From the NCBI GenBank assembly GCA_018362935.1, contig JAHALQ010000005.1, positions 62,490 to 126,489 of the forward strand: DNA of 64,000 nt. Direction: 5' to 3'. The translations under genes and the position numbers were made by a program. Source of the DNA: Pseudomonadota bacterium (GTDB taxonomy: Bacteria; Pseudomonadota; Alphaproteobacteria; RF32; CAG-239). The notes beneath the pieces were generated by a model that worked only from the letters and a program-made list of their open reading frames with translations, was not told the DNA's origin and did not search any database. Shown one piece after another: positions 4,838-44,458 of the stretch (position 1 is its first letter; each line of letters opens with the position of its first letter).

Positions 4838-6619
4838 CTAAAACTTCCTCTCGGTCGAATTGGTACGGATTTTAACCCCCTCGTTCTCGCGATCGTTCAC
4901 GGCATAGTCTTTGGCGATAGAACGCAAAAGCACTTCCGTTTCAGCCATGTGCTCGCCCAGAGTGCATGCAATCTGCTGAACAGTCGCCAGATTCTTATGG
5001 ATAACTTCCTTTGCCCTTTCGGCAATCTGCTCTTTGTGCATCTCGGCGTTGGTCACATCTTCGATAATGCCGCCGACGCTTTGTTTCTTATCGATATTAA
5101 AGACCACCACGTCAAACATCTTGTCTTCGTGGCGGACATGCTCTTTGTGAATATCCTGTTCCAAATCCAGCGACGCCGTAAACAGATTGGTAAAGCTGAC
5201 AAAATCGCGCAGATTGGCACCGTACAGATTGTTGTAGTCATAAATTTCGGCATGTTCTTCCTCGTTCCAGAACGTATCGCGGAACTGGTCGTTGTATTCC
5301 ATGATATTGAGCTTGGCATCGGCAATTACAATCGGCGACGGAATGCAGCGGATAAGCGCGTTGGCTTTGCGCTGCGCCTGATGTTTCATGTGCGAAACGC
5401 ACATTTCGGGCTCGGCCTTTCCTTCCAGCAACGCGCAGGCAAAATTGCGGCAGGTGTTATAACCGCAGCCGCCGCAGTTCAACTCGTCCTCAATGCTGTA
5501 TTTGCCGATTCTCGTCAGTACTTTGCGAATGTCGCTTTCCTCAAATTTGCGGTCCAAGCCGTTAATATCCTGCGACTTATAACTTTCGGCTATATTGTAC
5601 TGCGGTTTGCGTGAAGCGGCTTCGTCAAACGACGCGTTTTTGAGGATTTCCATTCTCTTTTGCAGGCCGGAAGCCTTGTTGCTGGTACAGGGGCCGGACA
5701 CGCAGCCGCCGTAACAGGCCAGGCATTCCAGAAAAGTCGGCCGGTTCAGGTTGTCGATGTCAATATGCGTCAGCTCGTCCTGCAAACTGTATATGCCGGT
5801 AATCTGCGCCATATAAACGTCTTTTGACAGATTATGCGGTTTGATGGTTTCAATCATACCGCCCTCAATCGGATAAGCGCTGCCTTCTTTAGCATTATCC
5901 AGGGCAAAAACGTCAAAGACGCCGGGCACCAATTCTTCCGGATTAATGTTTTCATCTTTCAGCCACTGGCGCAAATCCTCAAAACTCAGAGCCAAAGACA
6001 ACAGCTCCGGATGCCTGTCGGCTTCAAACTTTTTGGCAATGCACGGGCCGATAAAAACGGTTTCAACATTCTGTCCGAACTTTTCTTTAAGCATCCGGCA
6101 GTGAGCCAGCAGCGGCGAAGCCACCTGCGCCAGATACGGCGTCAGTTCCGGCAGATATTTCTCAACATATTCAACCACCGCCGGGCAGGCTGTGGAAATC
6201 ATCAGCCGGTTTTCGTTTCTGGCAACGGCATCTTTGAGCTGGCGGACGGTTTCGGCAGTCACTTCCTGCGCGCCGAGCGCCGTTTCGCTCACGCCTTTAA
6301 TCCCCAGCCGGCGTATTGCCGCTACAATCTGCTCCTTGGTATATTCGGGAAATTCCGTCACCCATGACGGCGCCAGCGACACATAAATCTCGCGATTGGA
6401 AGAAACCAGATATTTGGCGCGCGCCAAATCATTGCGCGGCTGCTTGGCGCTGGCCGGGCAGACTTCGTAGCAAATGCCGCAGGCGATGCACAGCTCCGGC
6501 ACAATCATCGCCGAATTGTCCTCAATCTTAATTGCCTTGACCGGGCAGCGGCGGACGCATTTATAGCAGTCCTGGCAATCGTTCTTAACGGTATGCAGCG
6601 GGAAGTCGCGATTAGACAT
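4838..6619 (-). CDS. hydS: putative sensory [FeFe] hydrogenase HydS (H-cluster domain + Cx2Cx4Cx16C + PAS)
   Basis: N-terminal 2x4Fe-4S motif (CYKCVRRCP, CIACGICYEVCP); L1 ISTACPAVV with Ala in place of the proton-relay Cys; L2 GPCIAKKFE; L3 ECLACYGGCVSGPC; then CGGCGYNTC-x16-C and a PAS-like domain; start overlaps the upstream ferredoxin stop (TAATG). Confidence 0.85.
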   Translation of the reverse strand: MSNRDFPLHTVKNDCQDCYKCVRRCPVKAIKIEDNSAMIVPELCIACGICYEVCPASAKQPRNDLARAKYLVSSNREIYVSLAPSWVTEFPEYTKEQIVAAIRRLGIKGVSETALGAQEVTAETVRQLKDAVARNENRLMISTACPAVVEYVEKYLPELTPYLAQVASPLLAHCRMLKEKFGQNVETVFIGPCIAKKFEADRHPELLSLALSFEDLRQWLKDENINPEELVPGVFDVFALDNAKEGSAYPIEGGMIETIKPHNLSKDVYMAQITGIYSLQDELTHIDIDNLNRPTFLECLACYGGCVSGPCTSNKASGLQKRMEILKNASFDEAASRKPQYNIAESYKSQDINGLDRKFEESDIRKVLTRIGKYSIEDELNCGGCGYNTCRNFACALLEGKAEPEMCVSHMKHQAQRKANALIRCIPSPIVIADAKLNIMEYNDQFRDTFWNEEEHAEIYDYNNLYGANLRDFVSFTNLFTASLDLEQDIHKEHVRHEDKMFDVVVFNIDKKQSVGGIIEDVTNAEMHKEQIAERAKEVIHKNLATVQQIACTLGEHMAETEVLLRSIAKDYAVNDRENEGVKIRTNSTERKF

Positions 6620-6888
6620 TACTTATCTCCGGAGTTCGAATTTTGGTTATTCTGATAGTGTTTTTCCAAAATATCGTACAGCATGCCGCTTTCGATATTA
6701 TTATACTCCACGCCGTCAATCGTAATATTCGGCCCTTTGGAGCATTGGTCACAGCAGCGCAGCCCGGTCAGTTCGACCTCGGCTGACAGGTTATGGCTTT
6801 CAAGAAAATTTTGGATTACCTGAAGATTTTTCGAATTTCCGCGTGCAAAACAGGAACTGCCCATACAAACTTTGATTGTCGAAGCCAT
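6619..6888 (-). CDS. thioredoxin-like [2Fe-2S] ferredoxin
   Basis: C-x4-C (CMGSSC) and CC-x2-C (CCDQC); start set at MASTIKV because GGAGG lies 6 nt upstream, and the track ORF start at 6912 falls inside the RBS; 89 aa, same length as the paralog at 3372-3641. Confidence 0.65.
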   Translation of the reverse strand: MASTIKVCMGSSCFARGNSKNLQVIQNFLESHNLSAEVELTGLRCCDQCSKGPNITIDGVEYNNIESGMLYDILEKHYQNNQNSNSGDK

Positions 6889-6920
6889 TTTTTCCTCCGG
6901 CTGATAAAACACTTGTAAAA

Positions 6921-6949
6921 ATTATATAATTAAGCTCCTCAAAACGCAA
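6921..6949 (-). promoter_or_regulatory. sigma70-like promoter for the hyd operon (TTGCGT-17-TATAAT on the minus strand)
   Basis: Reverse complement of 6921-6949 reads TTGCGT tttgaggagcttaatta TATAAT, about 30 nt upstream of the RBS and start at 6888. Confidence 0.35.
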
Positions 6950-7001
6950 CAGAAATAGTTAACGTCCGAAACATATTTTTACTTAGGAAAACATTGGTAA
7001 T

Positions 7002-7034
7002 TTGCTTGATATAAGCATAAAGCAAGATTATGAT
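7002..7034 (+). promoter_or_regulatory. candidate promoter (TTGATA-17-TATGAT) for the first GGDEF-EAL gene, overlapping inverted repeat TTGCTT-N12-AAGCAA
   Basis: -35 at 7006-7011, -10 at 7029-7034; inverted-repeat arms at 7002-7007 and 7020-7025, a possible operator in the divergent intergenic region. Confidence 0.3.
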
Positions 7035-7066
7035 AAAAAGCAAAATGTCAATCGCTGAGAAACAAA

Positions 7067-8347
7067 ATGGCACAAGCAAACAGATTTGTAGCTGAAAAAA
7101 ATTTACTGGACACGTTGGATCGCATTGCCCGCAATCAGGCGGCATATTCGGTTTTGTATGTCAGTTTGTCCAAACTCAAGCCCAAAAACCGCCATCCCGC
7201 CTTTATCAAAATCATTGCCAAACTGTTTGATGATCTGGTCGGTGCCGCCGAAGGTTCAATGTTTATCCTCAACAACGGCGATTTTGCCATTCTCGGCAAA
7301 AACATTACTGCTGAAATTGTCGCCGATGCGGTCGACAAACTGCGCAAAGGCCTTGCGTCAGACCCGATTTTGTTCAACAGCAACATCTCAGAATTTGCGC
7401 ACCTGTATAACTTTCCCGAAGATTTCTCAACTTTGTACGAGTATATCAGACTGCAGATTGACAATGCCAGGCAGCCCGATTTTTCAAACCTTAAATATCC
7501 TGTCGAAGCTTCGCAGATGGACGGCGTGCTGGCGCACCTGGACGCCATTAACGTTGCCGAAATCATCAAGCATCAGAGCGTCATCCGCGTTGAAAAAGCC
7601 AATCAGTTCAAAGTACTGTTTCAGGAATTCTTTGTCGCTGTCAAAGACCTTAGCACCCTGTATGACAAAAACATCGACCTGACCGCCAACAAATGGCTTT
7701 TTCTTTATCTGACGCAGGCGCTTGATAAAAAAACAATTGCTTCGTTTCAGGCTGCCGAAATAAAAAACTGGCCGGCGTGCATAAGCCTTAACCTCCATTT
7801 ATCATCCGTATTCACGACCGAATTCGACAATCTGGCCGGCAGCCTTTTCGCCCCGCAGCAGCAGATTATTGCCGAAGTCCAGATGATGGACGTATTCAAC
7901 CGGCTCGAAAGTTACTTTGAAGCCAGAGAAAAACTGCATGCGCAGGGAAACCGGATTCTTATAGACGGGCTGATTCCCGAAACTTTATCCCTGATAGACA
8001 TAAACCGCCTGCAGCCTGACTTGATTAAACTGTTCTGGAATCCGATGATGGAATATGACACGAACAATCAGGAGCTGCGTGACATCATCAGCCAATTCGG
8101 CAGCGATCGGATTATTCTGGCCAAATGCACCGACGACAAAGCGCTGCGCTGGGGAATTTCATACGGTATTCGCGCTTTTCAGGGGCCGTATGCCGATAAT
8201 CTGGAAACTGCCGTTATCCGCTCGCAATGCCCGGCCGCAGCCGCATGCACAGCGGCTGACTGCCTCAGGCGCCGCCGCCTGATTACCGGCGCCGCGCGCA
8301 GCCAGTGCAAACATATCGAACACCTGGAAAAACTGCTGGGACAATAA
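7067..8347 (+). CDS. degenerate GGDEF-EAL protein (both domains apparently catalytically inactive)
   Basis: N-terminal GGDEF-like fold with GGDEF replaced by NNGDF and the DxDxFK region by SLSKLK; C-terminal EAL-like fold with DDFGTG replaced by IDGLIP, KLFW in place of KID, AKCTDD in place of AEGVE, and a FQGPY tail. Confidence 0.55.
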   Translation: MAQANRFVAEKNLLDTLDRIARNQAAYSVLYVSLSKLKPKNRHPAFIKIIAKLFDDLVGAAEGSMFILNNGDFAILGKNITAEIVADAVDKLRKGLASDPILFNSNISEFAHLYNFPEDFSTLYEYIRLQIDNARQPDFSNLKYPVEASQMDGVLAHLDAINVAEIIKHQSVIRVEKANQFKVLFQEFFVAVKDLSTLYDKNIDLTANKWLFLYLTQALDKKTIASFQAAEIKNWPACISLNLHLSSVFTTEFDNLAGSLFAPQQQIIAEVQMMDVFNRLESYFEAREKLHAQGNRILIDGLIPETLSLIDINRLQPDLIKLFWNPMMEYDTNNQELRDIISQFGSDRIILAKCTDDKALRWGISYGIRAFQGPYADNLETAVIRSQCPAAAACTAADCLRRRRLITGAARSQCKHIEHLEKLLGQ

Positions 8348-13341: not shown

Positions 13342-13859
13342 TATTCTTCATCCTGTATCAGCGTATTTTGCACAAAAGCCAGCAGCAGTGAAACCAGCGG
13401 ATAGCAAAATACAGTTATCAGATAGCTGAAAAACAGCACGCCGAGCGGCAAAAAGCGGCTGTAATAAACCGACACCACCAACCAGCGCAGCAAAATCGTT
13501 CCCAAAGACAGGGCGACAAAGCCGTACCACAAAACCACGAAAGGTTTTGCCGTCAGAAATTTTGACGCGGCATTGGTCAGAACATACAAAACCAGCATGG
13601 CAAAAATACTTGAACCCATCGGCGCGGCGCTGATAACATCATCAACCAGCCCCAGGCAGCAAATAGACCATAAATTAAACAAATCCGGACGGTGCACCAG
13701 CCAAAAATAGCCGCAAATCAATCCGATAGCCGGATGAATGGTGTTAAGAAACAAAAAATTCAGCGGCAGATAAGACAGCAAAACCAGAAAAACCGAAGAC
13801 AACAGCGGCAGCAAACGCTGAAACAGGGAATTGATGTTTTCATCCAAATCATCACTCAT
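13341..13859 (-). CDS. mreD: rod shape-determining protein MreD
   Basis: Small polytopic membrane protein in the mreBCD-mrdAB cluster; overlaps mreC by 8 nt. Confidence 0.8.
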   Translation of the reverse strand: MSDDLDENINSLFQRLLPLLSSVFLVLLSYLPLNFLFLNTIHPAIGLICGYFWLVHRPDLFNLWSICCLGLVDDVISAAPMGSSIFAMLVLYVLTNAASKFLTAKPFVVLWYGFVALSLGTILLRWLVVSVYYSRFLPLGVLFFSYLITVFCYPLVSLLLAFVQNTLIQDEE

Positions 13860-14730
13860 CGGTATCCCCGTTTTTAAGATTCAGCTGGCTGTCCCTGAGC
13901 AGCCCCTCAAGACCGTAATTGATTAGCTTGATGTACTCAAGCTGCTCCAGCGAGCTGAACGGTTTAACCGCAATTTCGTTTTTTCCGGCGCTGACAACTT
14001 TGCCGATGGGCAGCCCGGCCGGAAAAACGCCGGCCACGCCTGAAGTCACAATCCGGTCGCCGATATTAATCCCGGCATCCAGCGGCGTAAAAATCAGTTT
14101 TGGCAGCGACGTATTGTCGCCCGACAAAATTCCGCGTACCCGCGAACTTTCGACAATTACCGGAATTTTTGAGTTGATATCGGTTATCAGCAAAATCCGC
14201 GCATAGCTGTCGCCGGCGCGGTCAACCCGGCCGACTACCCCTTTGTCCGACATCGCCACTTGTCCCTTGCGCGCTCCTGCATCCCCGACATAGGCAATCA
14301 TCGAATGCGAAAAAGCGTCGCCTTCTTCGGCAATGACGCGGGCGGTAATAAAATCAGATTTCGGCGGCGTCACATAATTGAGCAAATCGGTCAACAGCCG
14401 GTTTTCGATTTCCAGAGATTTAAACTTGTCATACAAAAGGTTGAGTTTGCGGTTTTCTTCTTTCAGGCGTTGGTTGTCGGCATGAATTTCCTTCAAATCG
14501 CTGAAATAATCATAAGCATGTGCAATCAGCTTCGCCGGGATAACCAGCACGTCTATCACGGGGGAAACAACATCCGTCGCCACGTTGGAAGTTTTTTCTA
14601 TCAGCACGGTATCGGTTTTGTTCACCAACATCAAAGCAAACGCAGTCAAAAACAAAATTACCAGCGCAAATTTCTTGGCCAGTAATCTAATGTGGCTTAA
14701 ATGTAAAAATAAACTTCTGCGCCGTTTCAT
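13852..14730 (-). CDS. mreC: rod shape-determining protein MreC
   Basis: N-terminal transmembrane helix, coiled coil and beta domains; position between mreB and mreD. Confidence 0.85.
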   Translation of the reverse strand: MKRRRSLFLHLSHIRLLAKKFALVILFLTAFALMLVNKTDTVLIEKTSNVATDVVSPVIDVLVIPAKLIAHAYDYFSDLKEIHADNQRLKEENRKLNLLYDKFKSLEIENRLLTDLLNYVTPPKSDFITARVIAEEGDAFSHSMIAYVGDAGARKGQVAMSDKGVVGRVDRAGDSYARILLITDINSKIPVIVESSRVRGILSGDNTSLPKLIFTPLDAGINIGDRIVTSGVAGVFPAGLPIGKVVSAGKNEIAVKPFSSLEQLEYIKLINYGLEGLLRDSQLNLKNGDTDE

Positions 14731-14781
14731 AAATCAAAAACTTTCGTGATAATTCACTCCAAGAAGTTTGGCCGGCGTGTG

Positions 14782-14851
14782 TAAATAATAAGAATTAAGG
14801 GCGGCAACACCGGAGTTTACAAAGACGTAAATGAGGATGTTGCCGACCCGC
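14782..14851 (-). terminator. complex palindromic intrinsic terminator, member 3 of a three-copy family (downstream of mreB)
   Basis: GGGCGGCAACAccggag[TTTAC..GTAAA]tgaggaTGTTGCCGaCCCG; on the minus strand it is followed by TTAATTCTTATTATTTA; homologous to 22681-22747 and 44333-44402 with compensatory stem changes. Confidence 0.5.
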
Positions 14852-14889
14852 AAATTCTGTATTAGTTACCAGCCGGACAAGCTTCTCGA

Positions 14890-15945
<1,056 letters not shown>

Positions 15946-21656: not shown

Positions 21657-21999
21657 CATAAGCTTCCGGGGTCTGCTGACGAAGATTGGTTGCATCGTCA
21701 AACCCGGTCACACATCTGTGCGACAATTTTCCTCCGGTTTTCATGCAGTATTCGTCGCGTACCAAATCATACTTGGCATAAACCGGACAGGTTTCACAGA
21801 GGCAGCCGCGATCCTCATCAATACAATGGCTTTTCTCAAAAGCGCAGAACATACTTTCAAAATGTTCGACATTGTCCAAATCCTCGAACATTTTAATGGC
21901 GTTGATCGGATAGTTTTTAATTTTGCAGCCCAGTGTATATGAAGGGCAGCTTGGACATTGGCATTCCTTCAGATTTTCTTTTGTCTTAGCAACCAGCAT
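21634..21999 (-). CDS. small cysteine-rich hypothetical protein
   Basis: Two CxCxxCPxY motifs (CQCPSCPSY, CLCETCPVY) plus further Cys residues; AAAGGAG RBS 8 nt upstream. Confidence 0.45.
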   Translation of the reverse strand: MLVAKTKENLKECQCPSCPSYTLGCKIKNYPINAIKMFEDLDNVEHFESMFCAFEKSHCIDEDRGCLCETCPVYAKYDLVRDEYCMKTGGKLSHRCVTGFDDATNLRQQTPEAYDAGGVQH

Positions 22000-22160
22000 T
22001 GATTTACTCCTTTGATTAAATGACCAATTTAAAGTATGCCGCTTTAGGGCAAAAACAATAGACCTTTGGAATAGAAGCCCAAACTGCTTGTCTCATGTGA
22101 TTAGTTATTCGTGATTCGTTATTGCTTGAATAATTAAATTTTCTCTTTTATACTTCTTTT

Positions 22161-22328
22161 GCTTTCGGGTATTCCGGAAGCGGAGTGTAACGGCTCCTTG
22201 TCAGTAAAAGAACAACTCCTTATATGGGGAGCCGGGGATATAAGCATGCCTGCATGTCGAATAACCCGGACTGTTCTGACACAGTCGTTAACTCCCCGCC
22301 TTAATTTTTGTTAAGGCGGTTTCTTTTT
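22161..22328 (+). ncRNA. candidate structured small RNA, copy 1 (own promoter TTGAAT-17-TATACT at 22126-22154, 3' intrinsic terminator)
   Basis: Nested stems (GGAG..CTCC; CCGGG..CCCGG; GCATGcctgCATG; ACTGT..ACAGT; GGGGAG..CTCCCC) end in CCGCCTTAA-tttttg-TTAAGGCGG + TTTCTTTTT; no conserved ORF; second copy at 43952-44115 with covarying stems. Confidence 0.4.
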
Positions 22329-22354
22329 AGCAAAAGAATTAAGGAGTTATCAAA

Positions 22355-22597
22355 ATGAGATTAAAAGCACATCATATTCTAAGGGAACGTCTGGCGCCTT
22401 TGCTGATTGAAGAGCGCCTGAAACGAAATTTGCAGCCGGCGCAGATTGCACTGGTCTGCGACTTGTCTGTCGATACCATCAACCAGATAGAAAGCGGCGG
22501 CGCCATGTCTTTCAAAAAATACCTTCGGCTGCTGCGGTATTATAATAAAAAGATAAAACTCGAACTGGTTGATTACAACCCAACCAGTTCAGCATAA
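22355..22597 (+). CDS. XRE-family (Cro/CI-type) helix-turn-helix transcriptional regulator, 80 aa
   Basis: HTH_3-like segment LQPAQIALVCDLSVDTINQIESGG; AAGGAG RBS; lies 25 nt downstream of the RNA terminator. Confidence 0.65.
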   Translation: MRLKAHHILRERLAPLLIEERLKRNLQPAQIALVCDLSVDTINQIESGGAMSFKKYLRLLRYYNKKIKLELVDYNPTSSA

Positions 22598-22680
22598 ATA
22601 ACAGGCACAACGCCAAAAAAGCTCGGAGAACTAGATGAGCCATTATACGAGCTTTCCGGAAAGCTTGGAGTTTGAGCTTT

Positions 22681-22747
22681 ATAATAAAAATTTAGGGCGG
22701 CGAAAGCGGAGTTTACAAAGTAGTAAATGAGCATTTCGCCGACCCGC
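22681..22747. terminator. complex palindromic intrinsic terminator, member 1 (terminates acyP on the minus strand, plausibly also the XRE gene on the plus strand)
   Basis: GGGCGGCGAAAgcggag[TTTAC..GTAAA]tgagcaTTTCGCCGaCCCGC with T-rich tracts on both sides; followed by a second hairpin TTGTATT-agaaagccaaa-ATACAA. Confidence 0.5.
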
Positions 22748-22783
22748 TAATTTTGTATTAGAAAGCCAAAATACAAGCTTTCC

Positions 22784-23071
22784 TCAAACGCGTTTAAACA
22801 CCCCCTCCTCTATCTCTGGCAAAAAACTGCTGATACGCCCGGGAATAAAATCAAGGCTGTCGACCCGAGCTAACGACGGGCCTTTGCGGCAGGCTAATAT
22901 CATCTCGTCAAGTTTTTCTTCTTCGCCGCGCATGAGGATTTCGACACTGCCGTCGGCAGCGTTGTGCACCCAGCCGGAGATTCCGCCGATACGCTGCGCC
23001 TCGCGAACGGCAAACCAACGATAGCCGATTCCCTGCACGCGGCCTTTAATTTTGATGTAGACCTCTTTCAT
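22784..23071 (-). CDS. acyP: acylphosphatase
   Basis: VxGxVQGVxFR N-terminal signature (IKGRVQGIGYRWF) and a GWV motif. Confidence 0.85.
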   Translation of the reverse strand: MKEVYIKIKGRVQGIGYRWFAVREAQRIGGISGWVHNAADGSVEILMRGEEEKLDEMILACRKGPSLARVDSLDFIPGRISSFLPEIEEGVFKRV

Positions 23072-43764: not shown

Positions 43765-43951
43765 GGCAAATCTCCGTAGTCATTGTTTTCAGTTATTGTC
43801 GCAGATACAGCGCAAAACTCAATCAATGATAAAGAGATATTCACTTCTTTTCGAGTCGCCATTTTAAATGGGTTCAGTAATTTCTGTATTAGCTGGCCGC
43901 TATACGCCTTTTTTAATTGCTTTTCAATAAAAGAGTTTTTATACTGCTTTT

Positions 43952-44115
43952 GCTTGCGACGTGTTGCCGCAGCGGAGTGTAGTAACTCCTTCACAGTAAA
44001 GAACAACTCCTTATCTGGGGAGCCGGGGGAATAAGCGTGCCTGCACGACGAAGAACCCGGACTGTTCTGTGACAGTCTTCTAACTCCCCGCCTTTGATTT
44101 TTTAAAGGCGGTTTC
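43952..44115 (+). ncRNA. candidate structured small RNA, copy 2 (promoter TTGCTT-17-TATACT at 43917-43945), 3' end eroded
   Basis: Colinear with 22161-22328; stems are preserved by paired substitutions (CATG/CATG becomes CGTG/CACG; CCTTAA/TTAAGG becomes CCTTTGA/TAAAGG); the U tract is lost to a ~120-nt deletion. Confidence 0.35.
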
Positions 44116-44119
44116 AATC

Positions 44120-44250
44120 GTCTGCGACTTGTCCGCCGATACCATTGAACGGATTGAAAACGGCTTGGGTGTTTCAATCAGAAAATATATTCACCTGCTG
44201 CGCTATTATCACAAAGAGATAAAAGTTGAACTGGTTGATTACAACCAATA
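44120..44250 (+). pseudogene. 5'-deleted remnant of the XRE-family regulator (paralog of 22355-22597)
   Basis: Translates in frame as VCDLSADTIERIENGLGVSIRKYIHLLRYYHKEIKVELVDYNQ*; the RBS, start codon and first ~35 codons are missing. Confidence 0.5.
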
Positions 44251-44332
44251 AATAACAGGCACAACGCCAAAAAGCTCGGAGAACTAGATGAGCCATTATA
44301 CGGGCTTTCCGGAAAGCTTGGAGTTTGAGCTT

Positions 44333-44402
44333 TATAATAAAAATTTAGGGCGGCGAAAGCGGAGTGTACTTTAGTGCGTACATGAGCATTTCGCCGACCC
44401 GC
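44333..44402 (-). terminator. complex palindromic intrinsic terminator, member 2 (downstream of ftsH)
   Basis: GGGCGGCGAAAgcggag[TGTAC..GTACA]tgagcaTTTCGCCGaCCCGC; the inner stem covaries relative to copy 1 (TTTAC/GTAAA). Confidence 0.5.
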
Positions 44403-44458
44403 TAATTTTGTATTAGAAAGCCAAAATACAAGCTTTCAACTAGACGAGCTTTTCCCTG

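Follow-up and report, generated by a model that had tools for sequence, protein, structure and literature searches.

A multi-copy structured RNA with its own promoter and terminator precedes small XRE-family regulator genes in gut Alphaproteobacteria

The closest described counterpart of the locus presented here is the Brt/Trp system of Bartonella henselae, in which nine highly expressed structured RNAs of 194-203 nt (Brt) each lie directly 5' of a promoterless small gene of the XRE family (Tu et al. 2016, PMC5387305). Brt copies number 0-34 among Bartonella species, and the RNA was reported to be genus-specific (PMC5387305). Deletion of the 3' stem-loop of Brt1 raised trp1 transcription, and a gfp reporter downstream of brt1 responded to heme concentration (PMC8070961, a review). 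Here, we describe a module consisting of a structured RNA, which we call RNA1, and a small XRE-family gene in a 64,000-nucleotide stretch of alphaproteobacterial DNA (contig JAHALQ010000005.1, positions 62,490 to 126,489, forward strand), the whole of which is referred to as the window. The anatomy of the module, the conservation of its structure, its linkage to the gene, its copy number and its tandem arrays are observations. Our favored explanation, to which we give a probability of about 0.72, is that RNA1 is an independently transcribed small RNA (sRNA) whose terminator also attenuates the downstream XRE gene.

Two other kinds of system share part of this organization. Trans-acting sRNAs that occur in multiple or tandem copies exist, including AbcR1/2 (alpha-r15) in Rhizobiales and LhrC1-5 in Listeria. 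Like RNA1, they form sets of several homologous sRNA genes, some head to tail, with their own promoter and terminator. In contrast, they are in Rfam, with no match here, and are not systematically coupled to a downstream regulator gene. Attenuating leaders and riboswitches resemble RNA1 in having a conserved, covarying fold directly 5' of a terminator and a gene that depends on read-through, as is predicted here, but they differ from it in that RNA1 has its own promoter, forms arrays free of open reading frames (ORFs) and shows no supported antiterminator. Moreover, RNA1 is in every case followed by a small regulator gene and not by one for metabolism or transport, so that the gene context gives no hint of a ligand.

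The window carries two direct copies of the module, 21.8 kb apart, at 22126-22786 (copy 1) and 43917-44440 (copy 2), as blocks of about 0.5-0.66 kb. An earlier reading of the letters by a model (the sequence-only reading) had proposed this duplication, which is borne out by three direct-repeat families (22207-22286 with 43998-44077, 89%; 22446-22580 with 44112-44246, 77%; 22616-22716 with 44269-44369, 98%) and by a pairwise alignment in which 81% of the columns are identical and copy 2 shows one gap, of about 125 nt. The features of the two RNA and gene units are as follows.

22126-22154, plus strand: sigma-70-type promoter of RNA copy 1 (TTGAAT-17-TATACT), found by a consensus scan
22161-22328, plus strand: structured RNA1 copy 1, about 168 nt; covariance model R1 scores 189 bits at 22158-22336
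22296-22328, plus strand: intrinsic terminator of copy 1, stem CCGCCTTAA/TTAAGGCGG (22296-22319) and then a U-tract, called by the scan
22321-22348, plus strand: read-through leader of copy 1, with the U-tract opposite the A-tract AAAAGAA (22332-22338), then the ribosome-binding site (RBS) AAGGAGTT (22341-22348)
22355-22597, plus strand: XRE-family helix-turn-helix (HTH) gene, 80 aa (HTH_3, E = 4.8e-6)
43917-43945, plus strand: promoter of RNA copy 2 (TTGCTT-17-TATACT), read from the sequence and aligning with the conserved family promoter
43950-44115, plus strand: RNA1 copy 2 (R1, 155 bits); terminator stem 44088-44111 intact, U-tract cut to UUUC
44111-44251, plus strand: remnant of the XRE gene in copy 2, its last ~46 codons, without RBS or start (tblastn, 62% identity)

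The promoters in both copies and the 80-aa regulator with its strong RBS had been recognized in the sequence-only reading and stand. TTGAAT-17-TATACT is the sole promoter-like site that the scan found in 21950-22850, and none was found between the terminator of copy 1 and the RBS. A -35/-10 pair with a spacing of about 17 nt is also kept 5' of about 50 homologous copies. The claim that each RNA ends in an intrinsic terminator holds for copy 1, where the scan called the stem at 22296-22319 followed by TTTCTTTTTA, but not for copy 2. There, a deletion begins immediately 3' of GGCGGTTTC. Most of the U-tract has gone with it, and the terminator is no longer called; the RBS, the start codon and about 30 codons are missing too, and this part of the loss had already been described. 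The remaining XRE frame matches residues 31-75 of the copy 1 protein with 62% identity over 45 aa and is probably a pseudogene. Copy 2 had been taken for a diverged twin of copy 1. Instead, its RNA is near-identical to that of a different paralog, at locus L005, and its XRE remnant ends like the L005 protein (RYYHKEIKV).

Two further loci, L005 (3001-3186) and L006 (247-432), carry an RNA near-identical to window copy 2. Their XRE frame opens ATG AGA TGA, with a stop at codon 3, and the ORF called there, of 61 aa, begins at a later TTG; like window copy 2, this paralog is probably decaying.

The fold of RNA1 is predicted to be stable, at -71.1 kcal/mol (z = -5.8) for copy 1 and -58 kcal/mol (z = -2.2) for copy 2. 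It consists of a 5' hairpin (P1), a long-range helix (P2-P3-P4) that encloses the hairpins P5 and P6, and the terminator as its last element. RNAalifold, applied to a MAFFT alignment of 52 copies gathered with a terminator pattern, returned 44 pairs in six helices, with double compensatory changes in 23 of the 44. Pairing reaches 96.4% of the cells in this alignment; shuffling lowers it to 79.6% and sliding of the partners to 48% or less. The covariation score is 0.46, with 0.11 or less in controls. A second set, drawn from metagenomes through a pattern lacking the terminator, gave 79 model hits, 61 of them distinct; aligned to the covariance model, these are 97.3% paired, with double changes in 30 of the 44 pairs and compensatory changes in 7 of the 8 pairs of the terminator stem. 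The slid-partner control reached at most 49% pairing across the covariation tests. The paired substitutions first seen between the two window copies are real and belong to a much wider covariation. G.U pairs in RNA1 are frequent and strand-specific, and since they would be A.C if read from the other strand, the plus strand is the RNA strand. Highly conserved nucleotides occupy its junction and internal loops (AAAGAACAA, GAUAUAAG/CGAAUAAC and GACUGUUC).

The same alignments bear on the idea that the module encodes small proteins, from a 51-codon ORF (22159-22314) within the RNA and a 31-codon ORF (22635-22730) downstream of the XRE gene. Both ORFs are present in copy 1, and a GGAGAAC motif, lacking AGGAG, precedes the second. 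However, homologs of the RNA region differ by indels of 1, 2, 4, 11 and 18 nt, so no reading frame is conserved there, and their substitutions come in base-paired couples. We consider a coding function scarcely credible; the second ORF is taken up below with the repeat that it overlaps.

No family of Rfam 15 reached its gathering threshold anywhere in the window, matches around copy 1 at E up to 10 were of chance level only, and searches of 11 other loci at E up to 1 returned nothing overlapping RNA1. Neither a tRNA nor a tmRNA was found in the window, in agreement with the sequence-only reading, which had recognized neither tmRNA nor a common family. One candidate, sRNA-Xcc1 (RF02221), scored 21 bits against a gathering threshold of 53 (E = 0.75), with no hit in the 11 other loci, and was treated as chance. 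Threading the inner three-way junction of copy 1 onto that model is possible but requires helices that compete with the covarying P3 and P4. Among the human-microbiome RNA candidates of Fremin & Bhatt 2021 (PMC8040213), the motif had no match in the 200 of 408 supplement files covered. RNA1 is a genuine and conserved structured RNA that Rfam 15 lacks, and the family has apparently not been described before.

In total, we collected 142 RNA copies from alphaproteobacterial metagenome-assembled genomes (MAGs) of gut and rumen and from human-gut metagenomes. The genome scan used a pattern on one genome per species followed by nhmmer, and its copy numbers are lower bounds: about 54 copies at least, from at least 20 MAGs. 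The first pattern was loose, and about half of its 114 loci were unrelated terminators in other phyla. The carrier MAGs are titled uncultured Alphaproteobacteria, proteobacterium or Azospirillum sp. and come from human gut, rumen, yak and roe deer, with 2 to at least 7 dispersed copies per genome. A phage origin was considered and dropped: five pattern matches lay on viral contigs, and nhmmer confirmed none of them.

RNA1 is tightly linked to the XRE gene. Downstream of the 142 copies there is an XRE-family ORF in 101 cases, the next RNA unit in 22, the contig end in 16 and neither in 3; consequently, 101 of the 126 assessable copies precede an XRE-family ORF. The gap between terminator and gene is about 30 nt in the copies measured, with a strong RBS. 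The linkage also appears from the other side, as loci retrieved by protein alone have the RNA directly upstream (123-148 bits), with two exceptions (L136 and L139) that are considered below. The XRE paralogs align end to end around L-G-x2-L-x3-R ... I-D-x2-E-x-G ... Y-G-K-x3-I-x-L-x-D, at a mean identity of about 22%, are mostly 72-92 aa long (range 60-132) and match HTH_31 in 20 of 25 family members. Among solved proteins, the closest to them are generic members of the XRE group, for example DdrO, C.BclI and HigA, and NCBIfam holds no model for this family. Word-indexed protein searches gave 6 and 34 relatives, with the exact or near relatives of the copy 1 protein confined to a handful of gut metagenome assemblies, while an exhaustive profile search gave 6599 hits, mainly generic or multi-HTH proteins. 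Paralogs of the RNA within a MAG share 76-79% identity in the three MAGs that have more than one pair (69% for the single CAZFRT pair), and their proteins only 32-43%. By these alignments, RNA1 is better conserved than its XRE protein (about 78% nt against about 40% aa).

A palindrome was also observed at the promoter. In many copies, the -35 hexamer lies within an AT-rich inverted repeat, TTAATTGCAAATTAA or, in another subgroup, TTTTGTTGCAAAA, about 10-25 nt 5' of the -10 hexamer (for example, L002 2781-2795, L003, L046 and L114; TTATTGCTTGAATAA at 22120-22134 in window copy 1). Autoregulation at TTAATTGCAAATTAA by the XRE protein of each copy is unsupported, since the palindrome precedes paralogs whose proteins differ, including in the HTH region. 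The palindrome resembles an operator or promoter element that the paralogs have in common, not a site through which each of them regulates itself.

On human-gut contigs, RNA1 also forms tandem arrays, in which two to five complete promoter-RNA-terminator units are arranged head to tail and repeat about every 256 nt (L177, L157, L188, L194, L151, L182 and L029). The array at L177 contains five units at 6566-7777, each with a TTGCCA-17-TAATAT promoter and its own terminator, and no ORF between units. In the arrays read, L177 (gene at 7801-8151) and L029, an XRE gene is found only after the last unit. Internal units differ in the stem of their terminator (CUCACCUUG/CAAGGUGAG) and have a variant form of P5. 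Tandem units with their own predicted promoter and terminator show, on sequence grounds, that RNA1 is a gene in its own right, and the arrays show, on the same grounds, that its dosage is under selection.

Our model suggests that a constitutive-looking sigma-70 promoter would transcribe an RNA of about 170 nt, which would fold into a 5' hairpin and a multi-branched domain. Most transcripts would end at the strong intrinsic terminator and accumulate as free RNA. The XRE gene, about 30 nt further on and equipped with a strong RBS, would be expressed only through terminator read-through because it has no promoter of its own. The RNA would thus have a double role: on its own it would be an sRNA, and for the regulator it would serve as a leader or transcriptional attenuator. 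In the read-through transcripts, the U-tract would pair with the A-tract just 5' of the RBS, and the complementarity of the RBS (GGAGUU) to AACUCC may offer a second, translational layer of control. The sequence-only reading had offered two roles, a new sRNA or a leader that gates the XRE gene in cis, and was essentially right; the arrays, the linkage in 101 of 126 copies and the promoterless gap of about 30 nt support both roles at once.

Several features of the leader are relevant to this model. The hairpin between U-tract and A-tract is predicted in nearly all copies, and the single C/G base that interrupts it covaries, with UUUCUUUU facing AAGAAA and UUUUGUUUU facing AAAACAAA. The RBS of the XRE gene is GGAGUU in nearly all copies and is complementary to AACUCC, the 3' strand of P2, in 33 of 33. 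Among the long ORFs of the window, GGAG occurs within 18 nt of the start in 5 of 52 and GGAGTT in 0 of 52; thus, GGAGTT characterizes the module and not the genome at large. Weak Shine-Dalgarno (SD) sequences, or none at all, seem to be used by this organism, and the invariant AGGAGTT of the XRE genes stands out. Sequestration of the SD by AACUCC is a possibility, not an observation.

The main competitor is a pure cis element, a riboswitch-like aptamer that responds to a ligand, a protein or temperature and controls the XRE gene only, with the free RNA as a by-product. Such an element would look much like RNA1, whose fold is complex and multi-branched, has highly conserved nucleotides at its junction and internal loops, and lies directly 5' of a terminator and a promoterless gene. 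The XRE gene does follow most assessable copies, and the repeated GGAG/CUCC segments could permit alternative pairings. An alternative fold can indeed be drawn, with a local GGAGU:RCUCC hairpin, GGGGAG:CUCCCC and ACUGU:ACAGU, but 95% of its cells are pairable compared with 94.4% in shuffles, so that a mutually exclusive terminator/antiterminator pair has no statistical support. It is built of invariant bases, with a lone covarying pair, 131-223 (GC 35, AU 13, GU 4, other 2). Furthermore, up to five complete promoter-RNA-terminator units without ORFs are unlike the organization of riboswitches and weaken any pure leader reading. In window copy 2 the RNA has stayed intact next to a truncated and probably dead XRE gene, which argues for an independent RNA gene. 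We therefore regard a pure cis element as improbable.

Other observations count against an sRNA that doubles as an attenuator. Two loci, L136 (40-324) and L139 (65-349), share with L137 and L138 the same XRE gene, RBS and U:A hairpin, but their terminator stem differs in sequence and their RNA body is unrelated, with the breakpoint at or just 5' of the terminator; given these loci, the RNA is not strictly required in cis. The minimum free energy prediction for the full leader includes P2 and leaves the SD free instead of sequestering it. The leader offers no convincing antiterminator: GGGGAG:CUCCCC overlaps just two terminator pairs, and the covariation at 131-223 may reflect one evolutionary event. 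The terminator columns of the 52-copy set are invariant by construction, and the alignment of the 61 copies, fitted to the covariance model, leans to the structure of that model. Finally, transcription, transcript ends, abundance, termination, control by read-through and any action in trans are all steps that we infer.

The chromosomal surroundings bear on a further rival, that the module is a selfish repeat, such as a non-autonomous cassette or miniature inverted-repeat transposable element (MITE), whose fold is a signal in DNA for transposition. In the window, copy 1 lies between a minus-strand DUF2769 gene and an acylphosphatase gene, and copy 2 between a minus-strand phosphoglucosamine-mutase-like gene and ftsH; in each case the module is antisense to both neighbors. 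On the contigs of relatives, it is found beside acylphosphatase/ATP12, YebC/RuvC, ClpX and H+-pyrophosphatase genes. Near-identical copies (85-96% aa) in at least 5 chromosomal contexts of the window's lineage would fit mobility, as would the recombination of L136 and L139 exactly at the terminator. Another point in its favor is locus L002, which has the right flank (acylphosphatase, ATP12, AsmA) in common with the window and L001, while the genes on the left differ (His_Phos_1 versus DUF2769/TPR). Since the flanks differ only on the left, the rearrangement breakpoint coincides with the module (around window 22100).

Yet no transposase or target-site duplication accompanies the module, there are no terminal inverted repeats in the window, the left edge fades into the promoter, and the flanks are housekeeping genes. 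The paralogs within a genome are ancient (26-43% aa), and still the fold is kept by compensatory changes and strand-specific G.U pairs. The position is conserved in distant MAGs, as L047 has the same upstream flank as the window and L130-L133 all lie in an S10-operon context, and the RNA is not on viral contigs. Taken together, a selfish repeat is very unlikely to explain RNA1, even though the module is followed in the window by an element that is itself a dispersed palindromic repeat. This element, which we call Element B, and the small ORF that overlaps it are placed as follows.

22656-22786, plus strand: Element B copy 1, a long imperfect hairpin repeat (fold z = -8.3)
44309-44440, plus strand: Element B copy 2 (nhmmer, 125 bits), with a core 98% identical to copy 1
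14760-14892, plus strand, antisense to both neighboring genes: lone copy of Element B between mreB and mreC, with no RNA1 or XRE gene nearby (repeat families, nhmmer)
22635-22730, plus strand: 31-codon small ORF (MSHYTSFPESLEFELYNKNLGRRKRS...), unsupported as a gene

Element B is an imperfect hairpin of about 130 nt, with 48 predicted pairs, of which 28 show compensatory changes among 8 sequences, and with the conserved apical motif CGGAG-UGUAC-AAAG-GUACA-UGAG. It contains one invariant G.U pair, and its plus strand is favored because G.U cells outnumber A.C cells (20 against 5). It is limited to close relatives of the window, where it also occurs alone or in tandem (L003 1775-1900 and 3261-3394; L047 4583-4713 and 4728-4860), and its lone copy in the window is bracketed by MreC (13852-14730) and MreB (14890-15930), both on the minus strand (Pfam). 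The palindrome at the 3' end of the module, previously taken for an intrinsic terminator, is part of this hairpin, and the scan of 21950-22850 found no U-tract 3' of it in copy 1. We regard Element B as a lineage-specific hairpin repeat, similar to repetitive extragenic palindromes (REP), that happens to flank the module; where genes end convergently, it may serve as a barrier. The 31-codon ORF had been described as conserved and RBS-preceded. It covers the 5' arm of Element B, within which its 3' half lies, but its start and first ~15 codons, the N-terminal half, are missing in L003, L005, L006 and the mreB-mreC copy, where the hairpin is kept by compensatory changes.

A minus-strand structure was also noted within the 3' end of the XRE coding sequence of copy 1, where a 12-bp hairpin with a T-rich tail (22561-22591) was called as a terminator. 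It could stop transcripts of the convergent acylphosphatase gene. One arm of the corresponding hairpin is gone from copy 2 through a 12-nt deletion.

How far does the resemblance to Brt/Trp extend? Both systems are alphaproteobacterial and multi-copy, with 0-34 copies in Bartonella and 2 to at least 7, plus arrays, here. In each, the RNA measures about 170-200 nt, has a promoter of its own and carries a 3' stem-loop at which transcription ends (predicted here), and a promoterless XRE gene follows; in both, the RNA is more conserved than the protein, and an sRNA combined with a cis-attenuator is the proposed role. They also share a long-range GGGAG...CUCCC helix around hairpins, then a GC-rich hairpin, then the SD. 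In contrast, the terminator here is a canonical stem with a U-tract, about 30 nt from the RBS and with the U:A hairpin between, whereas Brt ends about 15 nt before trp and its U-tract is unclear. The proteins here are mostly 72-92 aa (60-132), compared with 108-152 aa for Trp. Finally, the copies here lie among housekeeping or core genes, not in a plastic island, and form ORF-less tandem arrays.

Brt copies were retrieved from Bartonella plasmids (L126-L128) through the primer and probe sequences of PMC5387305, and primer design and gene order set their orientation, on the minus strand and reading into the HTH gene. Model R1, run with filters off, scored at most 8 bits on these loci, with nothing significant on the Brt strand. 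Comparison by hhalign with a plasmid Trp-like protein gave a probability of 4.4%, with only the generic HTH in common, and does not place the proteins in the Trp clade. When 5.8e9 proteins were searched with the profile, 34 came back and none of them bore the name Bartonella; Rfam holds no Brt model. The relation is thus one of the same architecture, with no homology detectable in these comparisons.

Two details of the Bartonella plasmids were noted in passing. At L126 1625-1714, L127 1606-1693 and L128 1615-1704 they carry an sRNA-Xcc1-like element (47-49 bits, gathering threshold 53, E about 1e-6), about 500 nt from the Brt copy and directly 5' of a gene with the RBS AAAGGAGTT. In addition, the 'BrtProbe' of Table S6 in PMC5387305 has, on L126, the same sense as the strand reading into the HTH gene instead of being complementary to it; either the target sequence is what the table gives, or its labels are swapped.

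A broader interpretation, which we hold only tentatively, is that RNA1 represents a class of signal-responsive riboregulators, in which the same sensor RNA would precede each fast-diverging XRE paralog and the terminated RNA would act in trans, and which, together with Brt/Trp, would point to a general and ancient design. If so, one signal would release a whole panel of transcription factors, and the combination of an sRNA-attenuator with a mini-XRE gene would be general and ancient in Alphaproteobacteria, beyond Bartonella. Apart from this possibility, RNA1 adds a strongly supported structured RNA family from gut Alphaproteobacteria without cultured representatives. The layout of Brt/Trp, published as unique to Bartonella, has a counterpart in a distant alphaproteobacterial lineage, which suggests that the design is more general. 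The many covarying copies provide a well-supported secondary structure, which has been lacking in the work on Brt and which should make it easier to test whether the mechanism is that of a riboswitch, a thermometer, a protein sensor or an sRNA. The amplification of RNA1 dosage in tandem, together with a conserved RNA next to diverging regulators, is unusual and makes the system experimentally tractable.

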